Shown here: piece by piece, positions 6,340-64,000 of the stretch
How positions within the stretch are numbered: position 1 is the stretch's first letter
Layout of the letters: every line of letters starts with the position of its first letter
Assembly (NCBI GenBank): GCA_035559535.1
Contig: DATMBG010000039.1
Coordinates: 1 to 64,000, forward strand
DNA: 64,000 nucleotides
Origin: Candidatus Limnocylindrales bacterium
GTDB lineage: Bacteria; Moduliflexota; Moduliflexia; Moduliflexales; JAUQPW01
Reading direction: 5' to 3'
The notes under the pieces: generated by a model
What the model saw: the letters and a program-made list of their open reading frames with translations, nothing else
Database searches by the model: none
Told to the model about the DNA's origin: nothing
Made by a program: the position numbers and the translations under genes

Positions 6340-8283
6340 TTAGTATTTAATGGTTACCGAAAACTGTCCACTGTTGCCTTTGTACCAGGCGTCATTGATT
6401 CCTAAATATAAGGTTCCCTCAACATTCATTTTGGCTTTGAATTTACTGCCAACGAAAAAAGGAGTACCGGTAACGCCGACCCGGGCAATCAAACCGGCGT
6501 GGGGTTTTGTATAAAGGGGATCTTCCTTATCTCGGGTATCCGTCCAGGAAGCTCCATCGGGGCCGCAAGAGTTCCCTTTATCATCATAAATGATTTTACC
6601 CGTGGCTGCAATAGAGATTTCTTGTCCTTTCTTAACGGTAATGCCGGTACTGGTCCAGGCCTGGTTACTGCGAATGAAGAGTTTTTGTTCCTTGATCTCA
6701 GGGGGTTGTGGGGTAGGGGTCGTACTGGCGATTCCTCGATGGGAAAACAAATTTTCGATCTGAGGAAGATGGGTTCCGTTGTAAAGCGCGGTATCCGCCT
6801 GACGGATTCCTTCATAAGCATCTTCAAATTTAGGGGTTTTGGGCAGGTAGTGAAGACTCTCATAAACGAGTAAATCGGCAACCCGTGCTCCCAATAACTC
6901 CCGTAAGTCCCAACAACTTGCACCCCATATTTCTCCATTCTCATGGGCATTTTCATCCCCTTCTTTATAATCATCTGGATACTTTTTGTTACTGGTGAGA
7001 TCTCTGAAAGCTTTTAAGCCAAGCTTCTGGACGGCATACTCGCCGATGAGGGGATCATCGGTTATGGAGCAGGCAAAATAATCTGCATACCCTTCATGTA
7101 AAGCCGCTCCTTCAGCCCCTTCTATTTCGGGCCGAATATGTTCGATGAGGGAATGGGTATATTCATGATAAATAACCGCCGATTCTTTGGCCAGATCATT
7201 CATTTTTTTTCCATGCCCAAAGTAAATCTGATGGGTCTCAGGGCTAAAATAGGCATTATCATAATCGGGGTCCTTAGTCTCCGGGTCAGGTACATGAACG
7301 TTGGCTTGAATAGGATCGTCTGAGGCCTTAAAGCCTAAATTAGTAAAGTAAACATGGACTTTATCCACATGGAAGTAGGCCATAACTTCATCAAAATGGG
7401 GATTATCGGGTTCATAAATGAACTCCCCGTTTGTGGAGCGGGCTTCCTCACCCAGGGCATTCTCCACTTTGACAAAGGATCCTTGTAACTTCCCTGAATT
7501 GTCCAGACGATTCAGCTCAACAATCTGAACCTCACCGTGTTTGGGGCTGGAATTATAGATACTTCCTCGGGGTGCTTCAAACCGCATGGCATTATAACTG
7601 TCTATTACTTTCCCGTTCTCGGCATTGACGAAATAGACCCAATCACCCAGCGGTTTACTGGCAGGAAAGGTTACCTTATAGGCTTTCACATATTGGTTCT
7701 GTACCGGATAGATAATCATTTCGGCCGAAGCACTTCCCTTGAGGGTCGTATCCGGACCTAAATCCTGGATTGCTGCTTCAATGGCTTCTGCTTTGGTAAT
7801 GGGACCTGCTCCTCGAACCCGCCGGGGTAAGCTAACCTTGGAAAGGTATTCTCCGTTGACCATCTGGACCCGGTTAAGATGGTCTAAATGGACGGAGACT
7901 TCCCCACCATGGACGGGCAATCCTTCGTAGGTCTGCTGAAAGCGAATATGGGTAGCCCCTTTACTCTCCACGCAGTCCTTCATCTTTAATTCACCCGGCT
8001 CATCGGCAAGGCCCAAAAGTTCGCGATTTTGGGATAAGAACCTCTCTGCAGCTTCTGTAGGTGATCCCGCTAAGGACTCTGAAACCGGAGCCTTTAGTGA
8101 AGAAGGACCCCGTCGGGTTCTTTGGGCACTTTGAGCCTCCGTACCCCTTACCCAGCGGATCTTTAGCTTTCTGCCGGGAGATCCTTCGGTTCTTTTTGCC
8201 CGAACCCCGGTGCGTTTTTGTAGACCCGCGTCTTCCGATGTAGATAATTGCTTAATAGATCTTGGATTAGACGGCTTAAACAT
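6340..8283 (-). CDS. Thermolysin/fungalysin-like (M4/M36) zinc metalloprotease with FTP/PepSY propeptide and C-terminal LecA/PA-IL-like beta-sandwich
   Basis: HIRFQQTYEGLPV (FTP), YFVNAENGKVI (PepSY), DNAYF, HEYTH zinc motif, HEGYADYF, H.NGEIW; C-terminal WTSTGITV..GPDG..PFFVG..LYLGIND..NSG. Start at ATG 8283 after a GGAGG. Confidence 0.85.
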   Translation of the reverse strand: MFKPSNPRSIKQLSTSEDAGLQKRTGVRAKRTEGSPGRKLKIRWVRGTEAQSAQRTRRGPSSLKAPVSESLAGSPTEAAERFLSQNRELLGLADEPGELKMKDCVESKGATHIRFQQTYEGLPVHGGEVSVHLDHLNRVQMVNGEYLSKVSLPRRVRGAGPITKAEAIEAAIQDLGPDTTLKGSASAEMIIYPVQNQYVKAYKVTFPASKPLGDWVYFVNAENGKVIDSYNAMRFEAPRGSIYNSSPKHGEVQIVELNRLDNSGKLQGSFVKVENALGEEARSTNGEFIYEPDNPHFDEVMAYFHVDKVHVYFTNLGFKASDDPIQANVHVPDPETKDPDYDNAYFSPETHQIYFGHGKKMNDLAKESAVIYHEYTHSLIEHIRPEIEGAEGAALHEGYADYFACSITDDPLIGEYAVQKLGLKAFRDLTSNKKYPDDYKEGDENAHENGEIWGASCWDLRELLGARVADLLVYESLHYLPKTPKFEDAYEGIRQADTALYNGTHLPQIENLFSHRGIASTTPTPQPPEIKEQKLFIRSNQAWTSTGITVKKGQEISIAATGKIIYDDKGNSCGPDGASWTDTRDKEDPLYTKPHAGLIARVGVTGTPFFVGSKFKAKMNVEGTLYLGINDAWYKGNSGQFSVTIKY

Positions 8284-54908: not shown

Positions 54909-57900
54909 ATGCACTGTGAAAGTTGTGGATTTGAAAATCCCCCCACGATGAATTTCTGTGGAGAGTGCGGCACAAAGCTGAGACTTTCGTGTCCCCAGTG
55001 CGGCGCTGAGAATCCCCCAGGGTTCAAATTCTGTGGCCAGTGTGGGGCAGGTCTGGCAATAGGGGCAACCCGCCAGGTCGCCCCTACAACCGATACAGGT
55101 CAGGTCCCTCTGCACCCAGAACCCCAGATCCAGCGTTACACCCCGAAACACCTGGCTGAGAAGATCCTCCAGTCCAGGTCTGCCCTGGAAGGAGAACGTA
55201 AGCAGATCACCATCCTCTTCGCCGACATCAAAGGCTCCATGGAACTGCTGGCGGGACTCGATCCCGAAGAGGCTCGAAGGCTTCTGGACCCGGTCCTACA
55301 CGCCATGATGGAGGCAGTTCACCGGTACGAGGGAACGGTGAACCAGGTTCTGGGGGATGGGATCATGGCCCTGTTTGGGGCTCCCCTCGCCCATGAGGAT
55401 CATGCAGTCCGGGCCTGCTATGCAGCTCTGACTATGCAAGAAGCCATCCGCCGCTATACCGAAGAAGTCCGTTACCAGCACGGGATCGAGGTGCAGATCC
55501 GGGTGGGTCTCAACAGCGGTGAAGTGGTGGTGCGGACCATCGGCAACGACCTCCACATGGACTACTCGGCCATCGGTCAAACGACCCATCTGGCAGCCCG
55601 CATGGAGCAACTGGCCACTCCTGGAACGATCCGGCTGACGATGAATACCCTTCGGCTGGCCGAGGATTTTATTCAAGTCAAATCCCTGGGTCTGGTTCTT
55701 GTCAAGGGACTCCAGGACCCTGTAGAGGTGTTCGAGCTGGTGGGTGCAGGTCCTGTCCGAAGACGTCTGCAAGCGTCTTTAGCTCGGGGTTTCACCCGCT
55801 TCGTGGGACGACAGCAGGAGCTGGAGACCCTCCGACAGGCTCTGGAGCAGGCAGGTAGAGGTCAAGGTCAGGTGGTGGCTTTGGTGGGAGAACCCGGTAT
55901 CGGCAAGTCCCGCCTGTTCTATGAGTTTACCCGTTCCCATCGAACCAAAGGCTGGCTGTGGTTGGAAAGCAGCTCGGTCTCCTATGGGAAAGCCACGGCT
56001 TACCTGCCGGTGATTGACCTCCTGAAGGCTTATTTTCAGATTGAGGACCGGGACGATGTCCGAAGGATCCGAGAGAAAGTTATGGGTAAGATCCTGGCCC
56101 TGGATGAAGCGTTGAGACCGACCTTACCAGCCTTGCTGTCGCTGCTGGGAGTGCCGATGGAGGATACCTCCTGGAAGCAACTGGATCCTCCCCAACGTCG
56201 TCAGCGGACCTTAGAGGCTATCAAACGCCTTCTTTTGAGGGAAAGCCAGATACAGCCTCTGTTGCTGGTCTTTGAGGATCTGCACTGGATCGATACCGAG
56301 ACCCAAGCCTTCCTGGATAGCTTGATAGAGGGCCTGCCGACGGCTCGGATTTTGTTGTTGGTCAACTATCGTCCCGAGTATCAGCATGGTTGGGGGAGCA
56401 AGACCTATTGTACCCAACTCCGCCTGGATCCCTTACCTTCTGAGAGCGTCGAAGAACTTCTCCAGGCTCTACTGGGAAACGATGCCAGTCTGCAACCCCT
56501 CCGACCATCCTTGATGGAGCGGACCGAGGGGAACCCCTTCTTCCTGGAGGAGAGTATTCGAACGTTGGTAGAGACCCAGGCTTTGGTGGGGGAGAGAGGG
56601 GCCTATCGGCTGGTGAAGGCGCTTCCAACCCTTCAGATGCCGGGGACCGTCCAGGCGATGCTGGCCGCCCGGATTGATCGGTTACCCCCTGAGGAGAAGC
56701 ATCTCCTCCAGTGTGCGGCTGTGATTGGCAAGGATGTAGAATTCTGGCTTCTTCAAGCCATTGCGGAGCTACCGGAGGAAGCGCTGCGTCGGGGTCTCCT
56801 GCACCTCCAAACCGCCGAGTTCCTCTACGAGACCAGTCTCTTCCCGGATCTGGAATACACGTTCAAGCATGCCTTGACCCACGAAGTGGCCTATGGAAGT
56901 TTGCTGCAAGAACGACGGCGGATACTTCATAACCAGATCTTGAGGGCCCTGGAAACGCGGTCATCCGATCGGCTGGATGAGAACGTGGAACGACTGGCGT
57001 ATCATGCACAACGGGGCGAGGTTTGGGATAAAGCCTTGATCTACTTCCGTCAGGCGGGGTCCAAAGCGGCTGCCCGCTCAGCCAACCGGGAGGCAGTATC
57101 CTGCTTCGAGCAGGCATTGGTTGCTCTCCAGCATCTGCCAGAGAGTCGTGACATGCTCGAACAAGCCATCGACCTCCGGTTCGACCTTCGGAACGCGCTT
57201 TTTCCACTTGGAAAATATGAACAGATTCTCAACTTCCTTCGCGAGGCGGAAACTCTTGCTAAAACTTTGGATGATCAGAGAAGGTTGGGTTGGGTCTCTA
57301 GCTACATGACCCACTATTTTTGGTGGAGGGGTAAGCTGGATCAAGCTGCCGAATCCGGCCAACGCGCCCTCGCAATTGCTACAACCTTTCAGGATTTTGG
57401 ACTCCAGGTTGCAACGAACCTCTTCCTGGGGCAAGTCTACTATAACTTAGGTAACTATCCCCAGGCGATGGAATTTCTCAGGAAGAATGTGGAGTCCCTC
57501 CAAGGAGATCTGATCTATGAGCGCTTTAACGTGGCTACCCTGCCTTTTGTTGTCTCCCGTCACTGGCTAATCCGCTGCCTTGCTGAGGTTGGAGAGTTCA
57601 CCGAAGGAAGGATTCGGGCCGAAGAAGCCTTTCAGGTTGCTGAAGCAGCCAATGATTCATTGGGTCTTTTCGCCGCATATTACGGGACCGGTTTTCTTTA
57701 CCTCCACAAAGGAGAGTTTCAAAAGGCTATTTCTCTATTTGAACGGGGCCTTGCGTTCAGCCAGACCTGGAATATCTCGTTCTTCTTACATTACATCAAT
57801 TCGGCCCTGGGCTATACGTATGTACTTTCTGGACGTGTTGCGGAAGCGATTCCTCTTCTAGAGCGGGCTGTGGAGCAGATGGTTTCTATGAAAACAATGG

Positions 57901-58307
57901 GTGGCTTGTCGCTCCTGGTTGGCTGGCTGAGTGAATCCTATCTATTGGTAGGCCGAAGAAGCCTTGCCCTGGAGCTTGCCCTGCACGCCCTTGACCTCTC
58001 TCGTAACCACAAAGAACGTGGACATGAGGCCTGGGCTCTCCGACTCCTGGGTGAGATCCACGCCCATCAGGCTCCTCCCCATGTCGAAGAAGCTGAAGAT
58101 TATTATCGTCAGGCTTTTGGGCTGGCTGAGGAGCTGGGGATGCGTCCGCTCGTGGCTCATGTTCACTTTGGCCTTGGGAGTCTCCATCACAAGGTAGGAA
58201 GATCGGAGGAAGCACGAGCTGAACTGTCCCAGACTATCGAGTTGTTCCGTTCTATGGAGATGACATTCTGGTTGAACCGGGCCGAGGCTATATTTGTGGG
58301 AAGTTAG
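54909..58307 (+). CDS. Double zinc ribbon - class III nucleotide cyclase - STAND/AAA ATPase - TPR protein
   Basis: Four CxxC motifs, LFADIKGS, GDGIMALFG, HLAARME, GEPGIGKS, FEDLHW, GNPFFLEE, YTFKHALT, TPR-like helices. Confidence 0.9.
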   Translation: MHCESCGFENPPTMNFCGECGTKLRLSCPQCGAENPPGFKFCGQCGAGLAIGATRQVAPTTDTGQVPLHPEPQIQRYTPKHLAEKILQSRSALEGERKQITILFADIKGSMELLAGLDPEEARRLLDPVLHAMMEAVHRYEGTVNQVLGDGIMALFGAPLAHEDHAVRACYAALTMQEAIRRYTEEVRYQHGIEVQIRVGLNSGEVVVRTIGNDLHMDYSAIGQTTHLAARMEQLATPGTIRLTMNTLRLAEDFIQVKSLGLVLVKGLQDPVEVFELVGAGPVRRRLQASLARGFTRFVGRQQELETLRQALEQAGRGQGQVVALVGEPGIGKSRLFYEFTRSHRTKGWLWLESSSVSYGKATAYLPVIDLLKAYFQIEDRDDVRRIREKVMGKILALDEALRPTLPALLSLLGVPMEDTSWKQLDPPQRRQRTLEAIKRLLLRESQIQPLLLVFEDLHWIDTETQAFLDSLIEGLPTARILLLVNYRPEYQHGWGSKTYCTQLRLDPLPSESVEELLQALLGNDASLQPLRPSLMERTEGNPFFLEESIRTLVETQALVGERGAYRLVKALPTLQMPGTVQAMLAARIDRLPPEEKHLLQCAAVIGKDVEFWLLQAIAELPEEALRRGLLHLQTAEFLYETSLFPDLEYTFKHALTHEVAYGSLLQERRRILHNQILRALETRSSDRLDENVERLAYHAQRGEVWDKALIYFRQAGSKAAARSANREAVSCFEQALVALQHLPESRDMLEQAIDLRFDLRNALFPLGKYEQILNFLREAETLAKTLDDQRRLGWVSSYMTHYFWWRGKLDQAAESGQRALAIATTFQDFGLQVATNLFLGQVYYNLGNYPQAMEFLRKNVESLQGDLIYERFNVATLPFVVSRHWLIRCLAEVGEFTEGRIRAEEAFQVAEAANDSLGLFAAYYGTGFLYLHKGEFQKAISLFERGLAFSQTWNISFFLHYINSALGYTYVLSGRVAEAIPLLERAVEQMVSMKTMGGLSLLVGWLSESYLLVGRRSLALELALHALDLSRNHKERGHEAWALRLLGEIHAHQAPPHVEEAEDYYRQAFGLAEELGMRPLVAHVHFGLGSLHHKVGRSEEARAELSQTIELFRSMEMTFWLNRAEAIFVGS
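55060..55087. repeat. GTAG-family REP inserted in-frame in the cyclase gene linker
   Basis: Minus strand GTAGGGGCGACCTGGCGGGTTGCCCCTA; translated as IGATRQVAPT. Confidence 0.8.
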
Positions 58308-58318
58308 TTCTTAACTTC

Positions 58319-59206
58319 ATGGGAAAGCAACTTACTTTTATGGACCGACTCTACAGTCTGATAGACAGGCTTTTCGATAAGTTAGAAAAAATCTGGGAAA
58401 GCATCTATACCCAGCGGATAGTCACCGATTTACTGGTTCTTGCCTTTGTAATTGGATTAATCGTTATTGAACTGAATCGAAAGGGAGTACTTCCAGAAAC
58501 TCTCAGCGAGTGGGTCCCCCGCAACCATTTCTACGCAGTAGGTTTGGCCTTTACCTTACTTCTGTTCCTGGAAGCCATTGGGTTGGTCTTTGCACTTGCT
58601 CATTCCGTGGCTGACTCTCTGGGTAAGCAATTTCAGGTGCTCTCTTTGATTCTTTTACGTAAACCTTTCAAAGAGTTTATATACTTCGACGAACCTATCA
58701 CCTGGACCCAGGTCTCCAGTCCTGTACTTCATATTCTTGCCGATGCGAGCGGTGCATTACTTATCTTTGTTGCCCTGGGGTTCTACTATCATGTGCAACA
58801 GCATCGTCCCATCACCAAGGATACCCTGGAGCAGTTTAGATTTACGGCAGCTAAGAAGTTAGTGTCTCTACTCTTATTAACCCTTTTTGTAATGATTGGA
58901 GTAAATCATCTTCGGAGTTACCTGGTTCAAGGATCTATCAACAGTTTTTTCGATACCTTTTATACTCTCCTTATCTTTAGTGACGTATTGATTGTATTGA
59001 TTTCGCTACGGTATAGTTCGACCTATAAGGTCGTCTTTCGCAATTCCGGTTTTGCTTTAGTTACGGTGGTGATTCGGCTGGCCTTAACCGCTCCGCCTTA
59101 TATTGATGTAGGCCTTGGGCTATGTGCAGCCATTTTGGCCTTGGGATTTACGCTGGCATATAATGCCTTTGAGCCTGTGGTACGGGAACGCATTGAAAAA
59201 GACTAA
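58319..59206 (+). CDS. Conserved-looking multi-pass membrane protein of unknown function
   Basis: About 7 hydrophobic segments; GKQFQ..SLI..R..FK and FRNSGF motifs. Confidence 0.7.
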   Translation: MGKQLTFMDRLYSLIDRLFDKLEKIWESIYTQRIVTDLLVLAFVIGLIVIELNRKGVLPETLSEWVPRNHFYAVGLAFTLLLFLEAIGLVFALAHSVADSLGKQFQVLSLILLRKPFKEFIYFDEPITWTQVSSPVLHILADASGALLIFVALGFYYHVQQHRPITKDTLEQFRFTAAKKLVSLLLLTLFVMIGVNHLRSYLVQGSINSFFDTFYTLLIFSDVLIVLISLRYSSTYKVVFRNSGFALVTVVIRLALTAPPYIDVGLGLCAAILALGFTLAYNAFEPVVRERIEKD

Positions 59207-59297
59207 AGAACTTTGTCAGGTAGGATAAAAAGGGAGGGGAATCCTTGGGATCAAGGATTTTTAATTCTTTTCAAAATCAAACGGGACGTTTAACCTA

Positions 59298-59681
59298 CTA
59301 ATCGGAGTTTCCCTCTGAAAGCCATCTAAGAATTCTAAAGTGCAAGGCCGCACTATTAAGATCTTCCATTTCACAAAATACTTTCATAAACTCGCGGCCT
59401 TCTATAAGGTAGCACAGATCCTTAAAAAATAACGCAATAATAACCCCTTTACAGGTTTCTGGATCGATGGATTTATTTTTTAAGTATCGGACCAGAGTCG
59501 GATAGATTTTATCACGCAAATACTCCCAGGATTTATCCACGGGCAAAACAACTTCATAAAAAAGAACTTTATCCCCGGACTCTTCCTGGGTTTTAGATAA
59601 TTCTTCCAAAGTTTGGTTGTAAGCGATACCCGGTATGATTTTAAAGGCTTTTGAGAATAAAAGCTCACGAAAATCGGCCAC
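59298..59681 (-). CDS. Hypothetical protein, last gene of the putative hibernation operon
   Basis: 127-aa ORF with GTG start after GAGGAGG, 33 nt downstream of the aeRF1-fold gene. Confidence 0.7.
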   Translation of the reverse strand: MADFRELLFSKAFKIIPGIAYNQTLEELSKTQEESGDKVLFYEVVLPVDKSWEYLRDKIYPTLVRYLKNKSIDPETCKGVIIALFFKDLCYLIEGREFMKVFCEMEDLNSAALHFRILRWLSEGNSD

Positions 59682-59714
59682 AGTTGGAACCTCCTCAAGT
59701 AAGATTTCTCCTCG

Positions 59715-60893
59715 TCAAGCCGGTGGTAAAGCTCGAAGGGAAGCCGGCATTTTAAAGCGGAGTAAAGCTCCGATCCTTCCCAGTTGTTTTAAAATAGGAT
59801 TATTTGGGATATGTTCCACTTCTCCCCGTTGGCGGTAGACTTCTTCAATAGCTTCATCTACCACATCGGGGACCTCTTCAAGGGGTCCTTGACAAATCGG
59901 GCAGGATTTTTCTTCCACCGTGGTTAAAAGTCCACAATTCCGGCACTCTAAGCCGGGAGCCGAAAAATCTTCCTCTACCAACAGGGTATGGATATTTCCT
60001 ACATAAAGGGCTTTTAAGGTATCGTGTAACCCGGAGACCCCAAAGCCTCCCGTAGCCACTTCTTCCATAAGTCGGGTTACCAGTTGCACTTCCTGCTTCT
60101 GTTCCACATCTCTTTCGATCTGAAGGATTTGAGTCTTAATTTCCTGGATGGGGGTTTCCACATCCAGATCCAGCCGGGCGACCAATCTTTTTATGAGGAA
60201 GCTATGTAAACATCTTTCAAATTCCGGGAGGATATCGCTTCGTCCTCCAATAACAAGATAGTCGAAGCGCTTCTCTTTGAAGAAATCAAAGACCCGATCG
60301 GCAACCTGTTTAAGATGCCGATAAACATGGTATTCAATATGACGCTCGATGCGTTTTTCTTCCAGACCGTACCACCCGGCTATCCGAACTTTTCCCGGAA
60401 CCTCCTCATCAAAGACTTTAAAATGCTCTAGAATTTCGCCTAAATACACCTCAAAGATTCTGGCTTTATCGCGACTGACCAGGACTAAACAATAGCGATG
60501 ATATTCATCCAGGAGAACGGTTAGAGGGCGTATGTAGGGATCATTTCCAACCACGAGAACATTCTTAACAGGTCGGGGAAGCCGATATACTTGCCAGAAA
60601 TCCTTTCCACTACAGGAGAAAATAGCCAGACCTCTGGTATTATTTCGTTTAAACTCTTCTCCTACAAAACGCTCGATTTTTTCAAAATCTTCTTCCAGGG
60701 ATTTCATGACCCCATGGGGTAGGTGTTCTGCTTCCAGCTCCAGCCGCCGTTCTTTAATTAAATTTTTAGTGATTGTTTCATAATCCCGGGGGGTATATTT
60801 ACTTCCATCTACATTCAGATAAAAGCTACAGGTCTTATAGGTTTCTCCCTTAAAATTTAAAAGTTTCTCTATATCTGCCGAAGAAATCATCAA
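59715..60893 (-). CDS. Bacterial aeRF1/Pelota-fold protein (baeRF-like; release-factor or hibernation-factor homologue) with zinc ribbon
   Basis: SFYLNVD, GLAIFSC, PYIRPL, LV.RDKARIF, LVIGG, G...TL.AL..G.I.TLLV, CRNC..CPIC, IGALLRF C-terminus. Confidence 0.85.
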   Translation of the reverse strand: MMISSADIEKLLNFKGETYKTCSFYLNVDGSKYTPRDYETITKNLIKERRLELEAEHLPHGVMKSLEEDFEKIERFVGEEFKRNNTRGLAIFSCSGKDFWQVYRLPRPVKNVLVVGNDPYIRPLTVLLDEYHRYCLVLVSRDKARIFEVYLGEILEHFKVFDEEVPGKVRIAGWYGLEEKRIERHIEYHVYRHLKQVADRVFDFFKEKRFDYLVIGGRSDILPEFERCLHSFLIKRLVARLDLDVETPIQEIKTQILQIERDVEQKQEVQLVTRLMEEVATGGFGVSGLHDTLKALYVGNIHTLLVEEDFSAPGLECRNCGLLTTVEEKSCPICQGPLEEVPDVVDEAIEEVYRQRGEVEHIPNNPILKQLGRIGALLRFKMPASLRALPPA

Positions 60894-60954
60894 CTTCTCC
60901 TTACCTCCTTGTTGGTATCCTGGGATAGTCCGTTAAAGAAATCAGATTTCTTTG

Positions 60955-61191
60955 TTATTCTCGATTTTCTAAAGCTTGCTGAATCAATTTTTCCACCCGC
61001 TCTGAATAACCTTCCGGAAGGTCTACTTCTTCTAAAGTTGTAAAGAACTCTTCCGCCAGATTTAAAAGGGTCAGACGCTCTTCACAATTTGGGCACTCTT
61101 TAATATGTTCGGCAATATCTTGAAGCAGGTCGGGGTGGAGTCCCTTATCCATATATTCTGAGAGGTAATTTATCACCAACTGACATTCCAT
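60955..61191 (-). CDS. Soluble zf-HC2 (ZAS) anti-sigma factor
   Basis: MEC......LSEYMD.....HIKECPNC (HxxxCxxC); no TM segment. Confidence 0.88.
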   Translation of the reverse strand: MECQLVINYLSEYMDKGLHPDLLQDIAEHIKECPNCEERLTLLNLAEEFFTTLEEVDLPEGYSERVEKLIQQALENRE

Positions 61192-61236
61192 AAACTTCCT
61201 TCACCTCCGTATCGGATTCTTCTAAGAAAAGAAGCC

Positions 61237-62250
61237 TTACACGAGTTCTGTTTCTTCCAACTTTGCTTGTAAGAATTCCCGTGCAGATTGAATTTCTTTT
61301 CGTACCTCATCAACGGATTTTCTCCTCACCCAGGCCACTTCTTCCAGGCTGAAGCCTTCCACGCTGTAAAGTATAAAAGATTCCCGCCAGCCTTTGGGGA
61401 GTTGACTCAAGGTTTGATGAATATATTTTTGAATTTCTTGACGGGTTACGATCTCTTCAGGAGTCGGCATCTTATCATCCGGTACGAGATCTTCCAGTTT
61501 TAGAGTTTCATCCGGTTGCCAGAAATCCAGTATTTCACTTCCCAGGGTAGAGACGGCCTCTGTAGGCTCCGGTTCTGGAATTTCGGTTTCAACAGGAACT
61601 CTGGCCTCTCGCTCTGCTTTAATTTTCTCAACTTCCCGTTCCAAAATATCCAGGGCAATCCGATATAACCAGCGATCCAGGGGAAAGGAATCCGGCTTCT
61701 GATCAAAGTTTCTTACTGCAAACAGAACAGTCTCATCTACTACGTCGGTAATCGTCAGATCATAGGGTTCTATATCTTCTATGAGTTGATGGTAGATGAT
61801 CTCCCTTCGGACAAAATTATAGAGTTTCTTAAGTTGAGGAAGGATCAGGTCGGTAAGTGCCTTAGCTTCATAGGTCTTTTCATAAGGAGCCATTCCCGAA
61901 ACAAGTTCTTGAACTTGGAATTTAGCCCGCTTTCGCTTATAGGCATCTTCCATTCGGAGCTTACTTTTAACATCTTCCAGTTGCTTGAGGAGCTCTCCAC
62001 AGACTTCTTTCAAAACATGCCGAAGGTTCTTACCTTGCTCCTCGGCATGGAGTTGTCGTTTGGGAAGGGAAAGGGTGAAAAGAGCTGCATACTCCTCTTT
62101 TCTTGGGTGTTTCTCCAGGGTTACATGTAGAAATACTTGATCTTCCGGGAACTTTAAGGTTCGCCGTTCTATTCTTTTAATCTGTCTTTCCAGATAGTTC
62201 TTAATCGAAAACGCCGGCTCCAGATTCTTGTAGAAAACTTCGTGTCGCAA
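61237..62250 (-). CDS. HPF/RaiA (S30AE) domain fused to ECF-like sigma-70 regions 2 and 4
   Basis: N-terminal ~100 aa HPF-like; DVVDET.L.A......LDRWLYRIAL (sigma2); LSQLP..WRESFIL..VEGFSLEEVA......V...I..ARE.L (sigma4). Probable TTG start at 62250 after GGAGGTGA; the ORF track starts at GTG 62268. Confidence 0.8.
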   Translation of the reverse strand: MRHEVFYKNLEPAFSIKNYLERQIKRIERRTLKFPEDQVFLHVTLEKHPRKEEYAALFTLSLPKRQLHAEEQGKNLRHVLKEVCGELLKQLEDVKSKLRMEDAYKRKRAKFQVQELVSGMAPYEKTYEAKALTDLILPQLKKLYNFVRREIIYHQLIEDIEPYDLTITDVVDETVLFAVRNFDQKPDSFPLDRWLYRIALDILEREVEKIKAEREARVPVETEIPEPEPTEAVSTLGSEILDFWQPDETLKLEDLVPDDKMPTPEEIVTRQEIQKYIHQTLSQLPKGWRESFILYSVEGFSLEEVAWVRRKSVDEVRKEIQSAREFLQAKLEETELV

Positions 62251-62556
62251 CAGACTCACCTCCGACACTCAATCCAACAGGATGAGAAGGGGATACTGGA
62301 TTTGGAGGGAAACTGCCTTCCTTTCAGGGTTTTTTTCTTGACTTTGGGTTGTATTTGTGGGCTCTGGTCTTCAACCTGTTTGGGTCAGGTTAAAGGATCC
62401 AGAGCGCACGGGGTAGGGGTTTTCAGAAGGTTGATTCGGAAAAGCTACCTTCTCTCCCCTTTCTTAACATGGGCCAGGAAATTTACCCGTTGAATCGGAT
62501 TCGGATCAACTGTTATTGGATATCCTATACCTTTGTAGTGCCTTTACAGGCTTCCT

Positions 62557-64000
62557 TTAGTCAAAATCCGGGGGTGGGGTAGGCATCTTAGACTTTTCCT
62601 TCTTCTCAGGAACCTCGGTAATCAGGGCTTCGGTAGTCAGCATAAGGGCTGCGACACTCGCGGCATTTTGGAGAGCAACCCGGGCTACTTTGGTTGGATC
62701 AATAATTCCTGCCGCAACCAGGTCTTCAAACTCCTCGGTAGCCGCATTGAAGCCTTCATTGGTTTTCATCTCTTTGACCCTCTCAACCACCACCGAGCCT
62801 TCCCATCCGGCATTATTGGCAATCTGGCGTAAAGGCTCCTCAAGGGCCCGCTTTACAATATTCACACCAACTTGCTGATCCCCTTCTAATTTCAATTTTT
62901 CAAGGGCCGGTAGACATCTTAGATAAGCCACTCCTCCACCTGGAACGATTCCTTCTTCAGCAGCGGCCTTTGTGGCGTGCATAGCGTCTTCCACCCGGGC
63001 TTTCTTTTCCTTCATCTCCGTTTCGGTTGCTGCCCCTACTTTTATGACTGCAACCCCACCGGCTAATTTAGCCAACCGTTCCTGAAGCTTCTCCCGATCA
63101 TAATCCGAGGTGGTCTCTTCAATCTGCATCTTGATCTGTTTAATTCGACCCTGGATTTTATCTCTGGATCCGGCTCCCTCTACAATGGTTGTATTTTCTT
63201 TATCAATGACTACTTTCTTGGCCTTTCCCAGATCGTTCAGGGTTACATTCTCAAGCTTGATTCCCAATTCCTCGGCAATGAGCTGACCTCCGGTCAGAAT
63301 GGCAATATCTTCTAACATGGCTTTTCGCCTATCACCGAAGGCCGGGGCTTTAACCGCCGCACATTTTAAAGTTCCTCTTAGTTTATTGACGACCAGGGTG
63401 GCCAGGGCTTCTCCTTCGACATCTTCTGCGATAACAAGCAAGGGTTTACCCGATCTGGCAACCTGCTCAAGCAGGGATAACATGTCTTTGGTCGAGGAGA
63501 TTTTCTTCTCATGGATCAAGATATAAGGCTCCTCTAAAACAGCCTCCATCCGTTCAGGATCCGTCACAAAATAAGGGGACAAATAACCCCGGTCAAACTG
63601 CATTCCTTCTACGAATTCCAGGGTGGTCTCCATGGATTTGGCTTCTTCTACCGTGATAACTCCGTCTTTTCCAACCTTATCCATGGCTTCGGCAATGATC
63701 TTACCGATGGAAGTATCACCATTAGCCGAAATAGCGCCTACCTGTTCAATTTCTTTCTTTCCGGCCACCGGTTTGCTCAGTTTTTTCAGCTCTTCGACTA
63801 CAACTTCCACCGCCTTCTCGATCCCTCGTTTTAAATCCATGGGGTTCGCTCCGGCGGCAATATTCCGACATCCTTCTCTGAATATGGCCTGGGCCAAAAT
63901 GGTTGCTGTGGTTGTTCCATCTCCAGCCACATCACTGGTTTTACTGGCCACTTCTTTGACCAACTGGGCTCCCATGTTCTCATAGGGCTCCTCCAGTTCG
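62557..64000 (-). CDS. groL: Chaperonin GroEL (5' part beyond the window edge)
   Basis: [44 protein letters not shown]; the frame stays open to the window end ([12 protein letters not shown]). Confidence 0.97.

Follow-up and report, generated by a model that had tools for sequence, protein, structure and literature searches.

Proteins of the aeRF1 type are now known to silence bacterial ribosomes, the best-described case being Balon, which was reported in 2024 to bind to the A site of the ribosome and to lack both the NIKS and the GGQ motif (Helena-Bueno et al., PMC10901736). According to the same report, Balon makes use of an HP motif, a lasso loop (around A2602), a bL27 trap and a β-hairpin for EF-Tu(GDP), occupies one ribosome simultaneously with RaiA, and is often encoded in the neighbourhood of RaiA, alternative sigma factors and chaperones (PMC10901736). 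It is only this β-hairpin, lasso-loop type that has been studied. Here, we describe an aeRF1-like protein of a different type, encoded at 59715..60893 on the minus strand of a 64,000-nucleotide stretch of DNA from Candidatus Limnocylindrales bacterium (assembly GCA_035559535.1, contig DATMBG010000039.1, positions 1 to 64,000; 'the window' in what follows). This protein, hereafter called the factor, has lost the catalytic glutamine of its GGQ-equivalent loop, and relatives of it are encoded next to sigma factors that carry an HPF domain. We propose, with some reserve, that it parks ribosomes rather than releasing nascent chains.

The ground for such a proposal was prepared by Burroughs and Aravind (2019), who defined the baeRF-1 clade, noted HPF genes among its neighbours and predicted that baeRF-1 proteins without the glutamine are non-catalytic A-site blockers linked to HPF (PMC6514570). 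The idea of a glutamine-less A-site blocker is, as these sources present it, already in print, in 2019 (PMC6514570) and again in 2024 (PMC10901736), and the family itself is catalogued in the 2019 lists: under 'family 2, b. zinc ribbon PELOTA insert' these contain the Koribacter protein WP_011521408.1 and a 381-amino-acid protein of Synergistales bacterium 54_24 (PMC6514570), whose metagenome-assembled genome also gave a related locus in our searches (L042). What is new here is the tryptophan at the position of the glutamine, the constraint on the loop around it, the coexistence of the factor with two Balon-type paralogs and the pairing with HPF-domain sigma factors, including a connection to orf11 of the tLST island.

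The GGQ-equivalent loop

The sequence-only reading of the gene had claimed that the loop contains neither GGQ nor GGxSQ nor any other glutamine, and this is confirmed: positions 60339..60404 of the minus strand translate exactly to EVPGKVRIAGWYGLEEKRIERH, and a conserved basic helix follows. Glutamines occur in the factor at residues 101, 196, 250 and beyond, so that there is none from residue 102 to residue 195. A glutamine at the catalytic position was also looked for by alignment with aRF1. HMMER sets aRF1 VPGKHMMGG---QSQRRIER against VPGKVRIAGWYGLEEKRIER of the factor, which brings AG of the query under GG and leaves no glutamine at or near the site, the loop of the factor being that of aRF1 plus three residues. 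In the corresponding alignment of the family profile, ...reggwyGleerrier faces ...RKGG---QSAQRFAR.

A sister branch helps to place the aromatic residue. Its loop has the length of that of aRF1, reads VPGxHxQGGW[SA]QxRxQRH and aligns without gaps to aRF1 GGQSQ, with a tryptophan at the position of the catalytic glutamine. By these alignments, Trp174 of the factor occupies the position of the GGQ glutamine of aRF1, and because the sister branch retains GGW[SA]Q, the glutamine was lost in the branch of the query.

The loop was then surveyed in the query and 255 further members of the family, 256 proteins of 300 amino acids or more, which were sorted by regular expressions into admittedly crude classes of 178 long-loop, 29 GGxSQ and 49 other proteins. 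Position 174 is aromatic in 162 of the 178 long-loop proteins (W in 97, F in 51, Y in 14) and Q in 4, while position 172 is G in 102, A in 64 and S in 10. In the 17 closest sequences, A172-G-W-Y-G-L-E-E179 is invariant, with alanine replacing the first glycine of GG. Across the long-loop proteins, residues 165–176 form the 12-residue segment of lowest entropy (1.39 bits, compared to a mean of 2.24). To judge from this conservation, the loop has lost its glutamine yet has not decayed and is instead under strong constraint.

When the loop columns are left out, a FastTree phylogeny still separates, at a branch with support 90, a 194-leaf clade that holds the query (168 long-loop, 3 GGxSQ, 23 other) from a 62-leaf clade (26 GGxSQ, 10 long-loop, 26 other). 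With six changes on the tree, the types with long and with short loops fall short of clean monophyly, and the sample behind both tree and loop survey is skewed to proteins like the query, because such proteins had supplied the search profile. As a separate observation, six relatives (P0044, P0045, P0049, P0072, P0084, P0145) carry an insertion of 30–36 residues in which the motif ..YGL.ERRIERR.. is followed by ..YGLAERKIERH..; this loop-plus-helix repeat looks as though the GGQ-equivalent element had been duplicated in tandem.

Fold and domain architecture

Read from its TTG, the gene encodes 392 amino acids. An ATG at 60890 comes right after the TTG and has AAGGAGG upstream, which makes it the likelier start, in which case the factor would begin at residue 2. 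The best Pfam model is baeRF_family10 (PF18854; 100.3 bits against a gathering threshold of 27.1, E 1.5e-28), which matches residues 119–261 over its entire length (model positions 1–143 of 143), followed by eRF1_3 (PF03465; 32.7 bits against 25.8, residues 267–382); acVLRF1 stays under its threshold (23.9 bits against 27.1) and 'family2' scores 13.6 bits. All NCBIfam scores, those of three Balon families, aRF1 and Pelota, are sub-threshold, with 69 bits for the aRF1/eRF1 model TIGR03676 (cut-off 234.7) and 14.5 bits for the Pelota/Dom34 model TIGR00111 (cut-off 177.65), and direct comparison to aRF1 8hku by HMMER gave an E-value of 1.5e-9. As many as 628 database proteins match the factor at E<=0.001, and the family profile matches 1,759 cluster representatives at E<=1e-30, which means that the open reading frame is not a product of chance. 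By these matches, the branch of aeRF1-like proteins that includes the gene is a large one, and it is uncharacterised.

An AlphaFold model of the factor, built on 84 sequences, has a mean pLDDT of 89.6, and only the tip of the loop (residues 170–175) falls below 50. Foldseek ranks Msmeg1130/Balon first (E 1.9e-24), ahead of aRF1 4af1 (3.5e-20), Balon of P. urativorans (1.7e-19) and Pelota (about 1e-12). In structural superposition by VIA-align, Msmeg1130 reaches Z 26.6 (367 residues, root-mean-square deviation (rmsd) 6.7 Å), Balon of P. urativorans 22.1, aRF1 20.3 (rmsd 11.8) and Rv2629 17.7. Taken together, the Balon group (Balon 8RD8, 8RDV, 8RDW; Msmeg1130 and Rv2629 8V9J, 8V9L, 8V9K) is the best structural match of the factor; the family profile matches Msmeg1130 at 2.4e-22 and aRF1 at 2.1e-21. 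The aeRF1 fold that had been claimed for this protein is therefore borne out by the Pfam domains, the model and its structural matches alike, and the three-domain architecture is present in full: an eRF1-type N domain, a middle domain that is RNase H-like and has the loop behind its strand 3, and a C domain of the Pelota/L7Ae type.

The N-terminal domain (60510..60893, residues about 1–128) has the eRF1 N-domain fold, with a VIA-align Z of 11.6 for residues 1–132 against 2lgt. Neither its sequence nor the alignments contain NIKS or YxCxxxF, and its tip loop (residues 56–61) varies across relatives. Within it lies the motif PYIRPL (60522..60539, residues 119–124), within the third most conserved 12-residue segment of the long-loop proteins (residues 119–130). 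It aligns to PFIHPL of Msmeg1130, with RP in place of HP, and may correspond to the decoding-centre HP motif of Balon, for which the text of the Balon paper gives no residue numbers. The middle domain (60108..60509), RNase H-like and of the eRF1_2 type, is covered by PF18854 and present in the model. The C-terminal domain (59718..60107), of the eRF1_3/Pelota type, superposes on the C domains of eRF1 and Pelota and carries a C4 zinc ribbon, CRNC-x10-CPIC (59892..59945, residues 317–334). Retention of this CxxC..CxxC minidomain as in archaeal aRF1, also part of the sequence-only reading, holds true: the ligands would be Cys317, Cys320, Cys331 and Cys334, and among 84 sequences C317 and C331 never vary, while at least 90% have C320. 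In the sequence alignment to Msmeg1130, the ribbon occupies the position of the β-hairpin of Balon and Msmeg1130.

Linkage to HPF-domain sigma factors

In the window, the factor gene is part of a minus-strand cluster that runs groES, groEL, a fusion of an HPF domain with a sigma factor, an anti-sigma factor, the factor and a gene of the STAUR_1299 family, the gaps downstream of groEL being 288, 45, 61 and 33 nucleotides, in that order. The fusion protein (61237..62268, 343 amino acids) joins an S30AE domain of the HPF/RaiA type (residues 13–105, window 61954-62232) to an extracytoplasmic function (ECF)-type sigma factor (residues about 137–337). It was recognised by Pfam S30AE (PF02482; 32.1 bits against 23.7) and by TIGR02937 (50.7 against 42.9), Sigma70_r4_2 also being matched, and its structural model retrieves HPF chains with Foldseek (TM-scores of 0.84–0.86, rmsd about 2 Å) as well as ECF sigma factors. 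RaiA from the Balon–RaiA ribosome compares to the model with a TM-score of 0.79. The true start of the fusion is likely the TTG at 62250, because a 94%-identical homologue begins there and GGAGGT lies upstream.

When metagenomes were scanned with the aligned sigma-fusion sequences, 448 relatives came up, from which 80 loci were kept. The match begins at or before query residue 30 in 75 of the 80 and hence covers the HPF part. Of the 70 loci with 1,100 nucleotides or more downstream of the fusion, 66 have as the next gene, in the same orientation, one that the profile of the factor's family recognises (72/80 counting truncated ones), with L098, L099, L112 and L141 as the exceptions that have enough downstream sequence and no factor. 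The 65 full-length factors linked in this way share 25–30% identity with the query; clustering leaves 61 groups at 90% identity, 24 at 70% and 7 at 50%. Their loop, R[RK]GRSDG[YF]AGYD[AG]GHA[QE]RR, likewise has an aromatic residue at the position of the glutamine, and the zinc ribbon is found in 64 of them. In a sample checked against Pfam, five of seven sigma proteins exceeded the S30AE cut-off and PF18854 was the best family for all seven downstream proteins. The pairing of the factor with an HPF-domain sigma factor is thus tight and widely distributed, and our literature searches found no paper on an ECF sigma factor combined with S30AE, or on HPF fused to a sigma factor together with Balon.

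The surroundings of the pair differ between loci. L096 has the order ftsH, HPF-sigma fusion, a 95-amino-acid HxxxCxxC protein (6527-6814) and the factor, i.e. the sigma/anti-sigma/factor order of the window, whereas L097 reads clpB, sigma, factor, dnaJ; L099 and L141, with groEL nearby, contain sigma, anti-sigma, BON and hsp20 genes without the factor. For the anti-sigma factor of the window, a homologue was found in only 3 of the 80 sigma loci (L098, L099 and L141), and in the loci of the acidobacterial type that were inspected the intergenic gaps, about 20–70 nucleotides, are too short for an anti-sigma gene. The genes upstream of the fusions vary (M20 peptidase, GlpX, radical-SAM enzyme, phosphoesterase). 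Downstream of the pair, 13 of 16 acidobacterial-type loci (L103, L107, L114, L122, L124, L126, L137, L144, L155, L164, L105, L116 and L110) have a same-strand Asparaginase_2 gene (isoaspartyl peptidase/asparaginase type), a side observation in its own right.

The nearest relatives of the factor itself were covered by a second set of 34 genome loci, fetched via the pattern AGWYGLEE and hence biased to that clade, in which 112 flanking open reading frames were scanned. Here, the operon of the window is repeated only in L002, from the same genus, and chaperone neighbours are GroEL (two loci), ClpB (two) and DnaJ-like proteins (two); clpB is part of the context in L018 and L020, as it is in L097. 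Among the genomes of 20 relatives, the factor turned up in two, that of the same genus and a distant one, and in no genome of the seven from the same order. Its distribution is patchy.

Returning to the remaining genes of the cluster, groEL lies at 62557..64000 of the window (to 64179 of the contig), and groES just beyond the window, at 64301-64588. The predicted anti-sigma factor (60955..61191, 78 amino acids) is a cytoplasmic protein of the ZAS type with C3 and H29-x3-C33-x2-C36; it matches Pfam zf-HC2 (28.3 bits against 22.2) and resembles RsrA at E 8e-6, which is under the cut-off. The cluster ends with the STAUR_1299-family gene (59298..59681, 127 amino acids; NCBIfam NF041086, 124.6 bits against 50), whose product is of unknown function, has no Pfam match and reaches Atlas scores of at most 0.82, to be taken as leads only; it accompanies the factor elsewhere only in L002. 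An ECF-type promoter of the form GGAAC..CGT was found upstream of the sigma fusions in 2 of 48 regions, which is chance level, and not in the window, and a sigma-70/terminator scan of 59100-62700 gave counts equal to shuffle expectation. A different element, GGGTGTA[CG]AAT, lies about 47 nucleotides before the approximate start of the sigma fusions, with GGGTGTA in 29 of 46 regions (L101–L175) versus about 0.6 expected, and resembles an extended -10 box; in the 288-nucleotide spacer between groEL and the fusion of the window nothing like it was noticed by eye, no motif search having been made.

Relatives of the sigma fusion are also found outside such loci, full-length ones being present on 280 plasmid records. 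A 'hypothetical protein' of a Klebsiella plasmid, encoded between hdeD-GI and trx-GI, aligns to residues 2–340 of the fusion (25.7% identity, E 4e-15), and its position is that of orf11 in the tLST/LHR heat-resistance island. A 2021 review places orf11 in the oxidative-stress module, as a gene whose function is unknown (PMC8290217), and its likeness to the sigma fusion offers a lead on this part of a clinically and industrially relevant stress-tolerance island. On a Paraburkholderia megaplasmid, a relative of the fusion is placed between three hsp20 genes and groES-groEL-dnaK.

The genome that the window comes from (5.6 Mb, 58 contigs) encodes RF1, RF2 and an ArfB-like protein, meaning that the factor is not the cell's release factor. 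It also contains two further aeRF1-like paralogs, both assigned to Pfam baeRF_family3: one of 401 amino acids (L067, 1429-2634, contig C37) and one of 397 (L068, 1435-2628, contig C29). On NF052287, the model of the AOC03_06830 family ribosome hibernation factor (Balon), they score 171 and 154 bits, still below the equivalog cut-off of 330, and no HPF gene stands beside either of them in the stretch fetched. The factor is the third such paralog and the most aRF1-like. When a complex was predicted in which the factor meets EF-Tu, GTP and Mg, with EF-Tu taken from the same-genus genome (G001), the score was 0.00, which is evidence neither way. Both EF-Tu gene copies of the window's own genome are cut at contig ends (C7:93384-93476 and C54:16560-16652). 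Elsewhere in the window, a plus-strand open reading frame of 1132 amino acids (54909-58307) has double zinc-ribbon-like CxxC pairs in its N-terminal part and lies in a stretch of 54% G+C, compared to about 44% around it.

Function, alternatives and known systems

On balance, the factor is probably a non-catalytic, stress-induced A-site hibernation factor of the Balon kind. That it acts in the A site in hibernation or rescue, and not in release, had been suggested from the sequence at the outset, and the suggestion gains support from the loop without glutamine, from Msmeg1130/Balon as the nearest folds, from the presence of RF1 and RF2 and from the linkage to HPF and chaperone genes. As we picture it, the protein would be a tRNA-shaped ligand of the A site of the 70S ribosome, i.e. 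a 'parking' factor. Its N domain would sit at the decoding centre without reading stop codons, lacking NIKS and YxCxxxF and presenting the conserved PY[IV]RPL where Msmeg1130 has PFIHPL. From the middle domain, the flexible loop with A-G-W-Y-G, i.e. two aromatic residues between glycines, would reach toward the peptidyl-transferase centre and block the A site, leaving the peptidyl-tRNA unhydrolysed; the aromatic tip might stack in the peptidyl-transferase centre, the basic helix after the loop (RIERH...H..RH) might bind 23S rRNA, and the C domain, in which the zinc ribbon is intact, would face the factor-binding site. Expression would be coupled to stress, the factor being the third gene of the cluster behind groES-groEL, after the HPF-ECF sigma fusion and a zinc anti-sigma factor of the thiol-sensitive type. 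Ribosome binding, the binding site, the lack of hydrolysis and control of the factor by the sigma factor are all points that we infer from these features.

Several observations weigh against this proposal. The factor has a C4 zinc ribbon where Balon has the β-hairpin that binds EF-Tu, and, unlike Balon with its poorly ordered lasso loop, it has a short loop of high conservation with an aromatic tip. Its scores on the models of hibernation factors are low: 78.9 bits on NF052287 against the cut-off of 330, 65 against 480 on the MSMEG_1130 family model and 42.1 against 320 on that of the Rv2629 family. An S30AE/HPF domain next to the factor's relatives is found in 0 of the 34 nearest loci, which indicates that the sigma link is specific to certain clades. 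Since the genome already holds two paralogs that are closer to Balon, a different job for the third is plausible. Finally, a loop this conserved could serve chemistry that has so far gone unseen. A rival reading would make the factor an alternative peptidyl-tRNA hydrolase, in which the backbone of G-W-Y-G, not a glutamine side chain, positions the water. In its favour, the loop is the most conserved part of the factor, which has also kept the VPGK of aRF1 and the motifs of the basic helix downstream, and some substitutions of the glutamine in class-1 release factors keep partial activity. Nevertheless, we regard a hydrolase as very improbable: the loop has no glutamine and is three residues longer than that of aRF1, the first glycine of GG is alanine across the query's clade, NIKS and YxCxxxF are absent, RF1, RF2 and ArfB are present in the same cell, and the GGW[SA]Q of the sister branch argues that the glutamine was given up in the branch of the query.

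A rescue factor akin to Pelota/Dom34, which would sense ribosomes stalled or damaged under heat or oxidative stress and promote their dissociation or recycling, is a more serious contender, albeit an unlikely one. Pelota belongs to the same fold superfamily and likewise lacks the glutamine, the setting among chaperones and proteases (groESL in the window, ftsH in L096, clpB in L018, L020 and L097) would suit such a role, and with two Balon-type paralogs present a division of labour is plausible. The N domain of the factor, however, is of the eRF1 type rather than an Sm-like barrel, the Pelota model falls far short of its cut-off, and Pelota matches of the whole protein are weaker than those of Balon or aRF1. 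An ABCE1-like splitting partner was not seen, although no search for one was made, and the conserved partner is a protein with an HPF domain, which points to hibernation. The adjacency of sigma fusion and factor in nearly all informative loci has also led us to consider a regulatory role, in which the factor and the HPF domain of the sigma protein form a ribosome-bound complex that sets the amount of free sigma, so that the ribosome would be the anti-sigma partner and hibernation a side effect. The short gaps of the acidobacterial-type loci and the rarity of the window's anti-sigma homologue speak for this idea, as does the finding that Balon and RaiA share one ribosome (PMC10901736), and it is compatible with hibernation as the factor's activity. 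Yet it is drawn from gene order only, and the window and L096 carry a classical ZAS anti-sigma factor, so that we give it little credence at present. In its most elaborate version, HPF-sigma fusion and factor would be a two-part device through which transcription follows the condition of the ribosome pool, with the sigma factor parked via its HPF domain beside the A-site factor and set free, or captured, whenever ribosomes go into hibernation or come out of it, the ribosome taking the place of an anti-sigma factor and orf11 being ribosome-sensing likewise; this, too, strikes us as rather doubtful.

The archaeal zinc ribbon and the conserved aromatic tip of this branch suggest that the peptidyl-transferase centre, and perhaps the elongation factor too, is engaged differently than by Balon, and the linkage to sigma factors provides a handle on how the shut-down of translation and stress transcription are coordinated. 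Should it turn out to be an ordinary analogue of Balon, the result would be a useful annotation and little more.

How does the factor relate to the systems described so far? With aRF1 (4AF1, 8HKU) and eRF1 it shares the order of the domains, a loop preceded by VPGK and followed by the basic helix, and the zinc ribbon of the C domain; unlike them, it has no GGQ, has tryptophan at the glutamine position and a loop longer by three residues, and is devoid of NIKS and YxCxxxF. Like Pelota/Dom34, it lacks the glutamine, and the middle and C domains superpose (Z 12–14.5), the difference being the eRF1-like N domain in place of an Sm-like barrel. As for Vms1/VLRF-1, which are defined by GGxSQ or GxuQ, the GGW[SA]Q of the sister branch fits GGxSQ, whereas the factor has neither this pattern nor any glutamine in the loop. 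The tLST island on the Klebsiella plasmid differs from the window in having no annotated baeRF gene.

The nearest entry in the classification of 2019 is baeRF-1 family 2b, with which the factor shares the codon-recognition-like, baeRF1 and Pelota domains and the zinc ribbon insert (PMC6514570). Family 2 is described there as having poor conservation in the loop (PMC6514570), unlike the long-loop clade of the factor, where the loop is the most conserved segment. The Pfam name baeRF_family10 should not be equated with family 10 of that paper, because the latter is an actinobacterial list with a two-β-strand insert, said to keep the glutamine (PMC6514570); an apparent conflict with this glutamine-keeping family was dropped once it was clear that the zinc-ribbon relatives stand under 2b. 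The lists mention a single 'HPF_like+HTH+HTH' neighbour, and as far as the text of the paper was available, its supplement never uses the word 'sigma' and its main text has it only in two reference titles (PMC6514570). It is Balon that remains the closest described system: the factor has the same three-domain aeRF1 fold, lacks NIKS and GGQ in the same way and is found in the same kind of context, i.e. with HPF/RaiA proteins, sigma factors and chaperones. The best-supported view is that the factor is a structural variant of Balon, with a zinc ribbon for the hairpin and a G-W-Y-G tip for the lasso.

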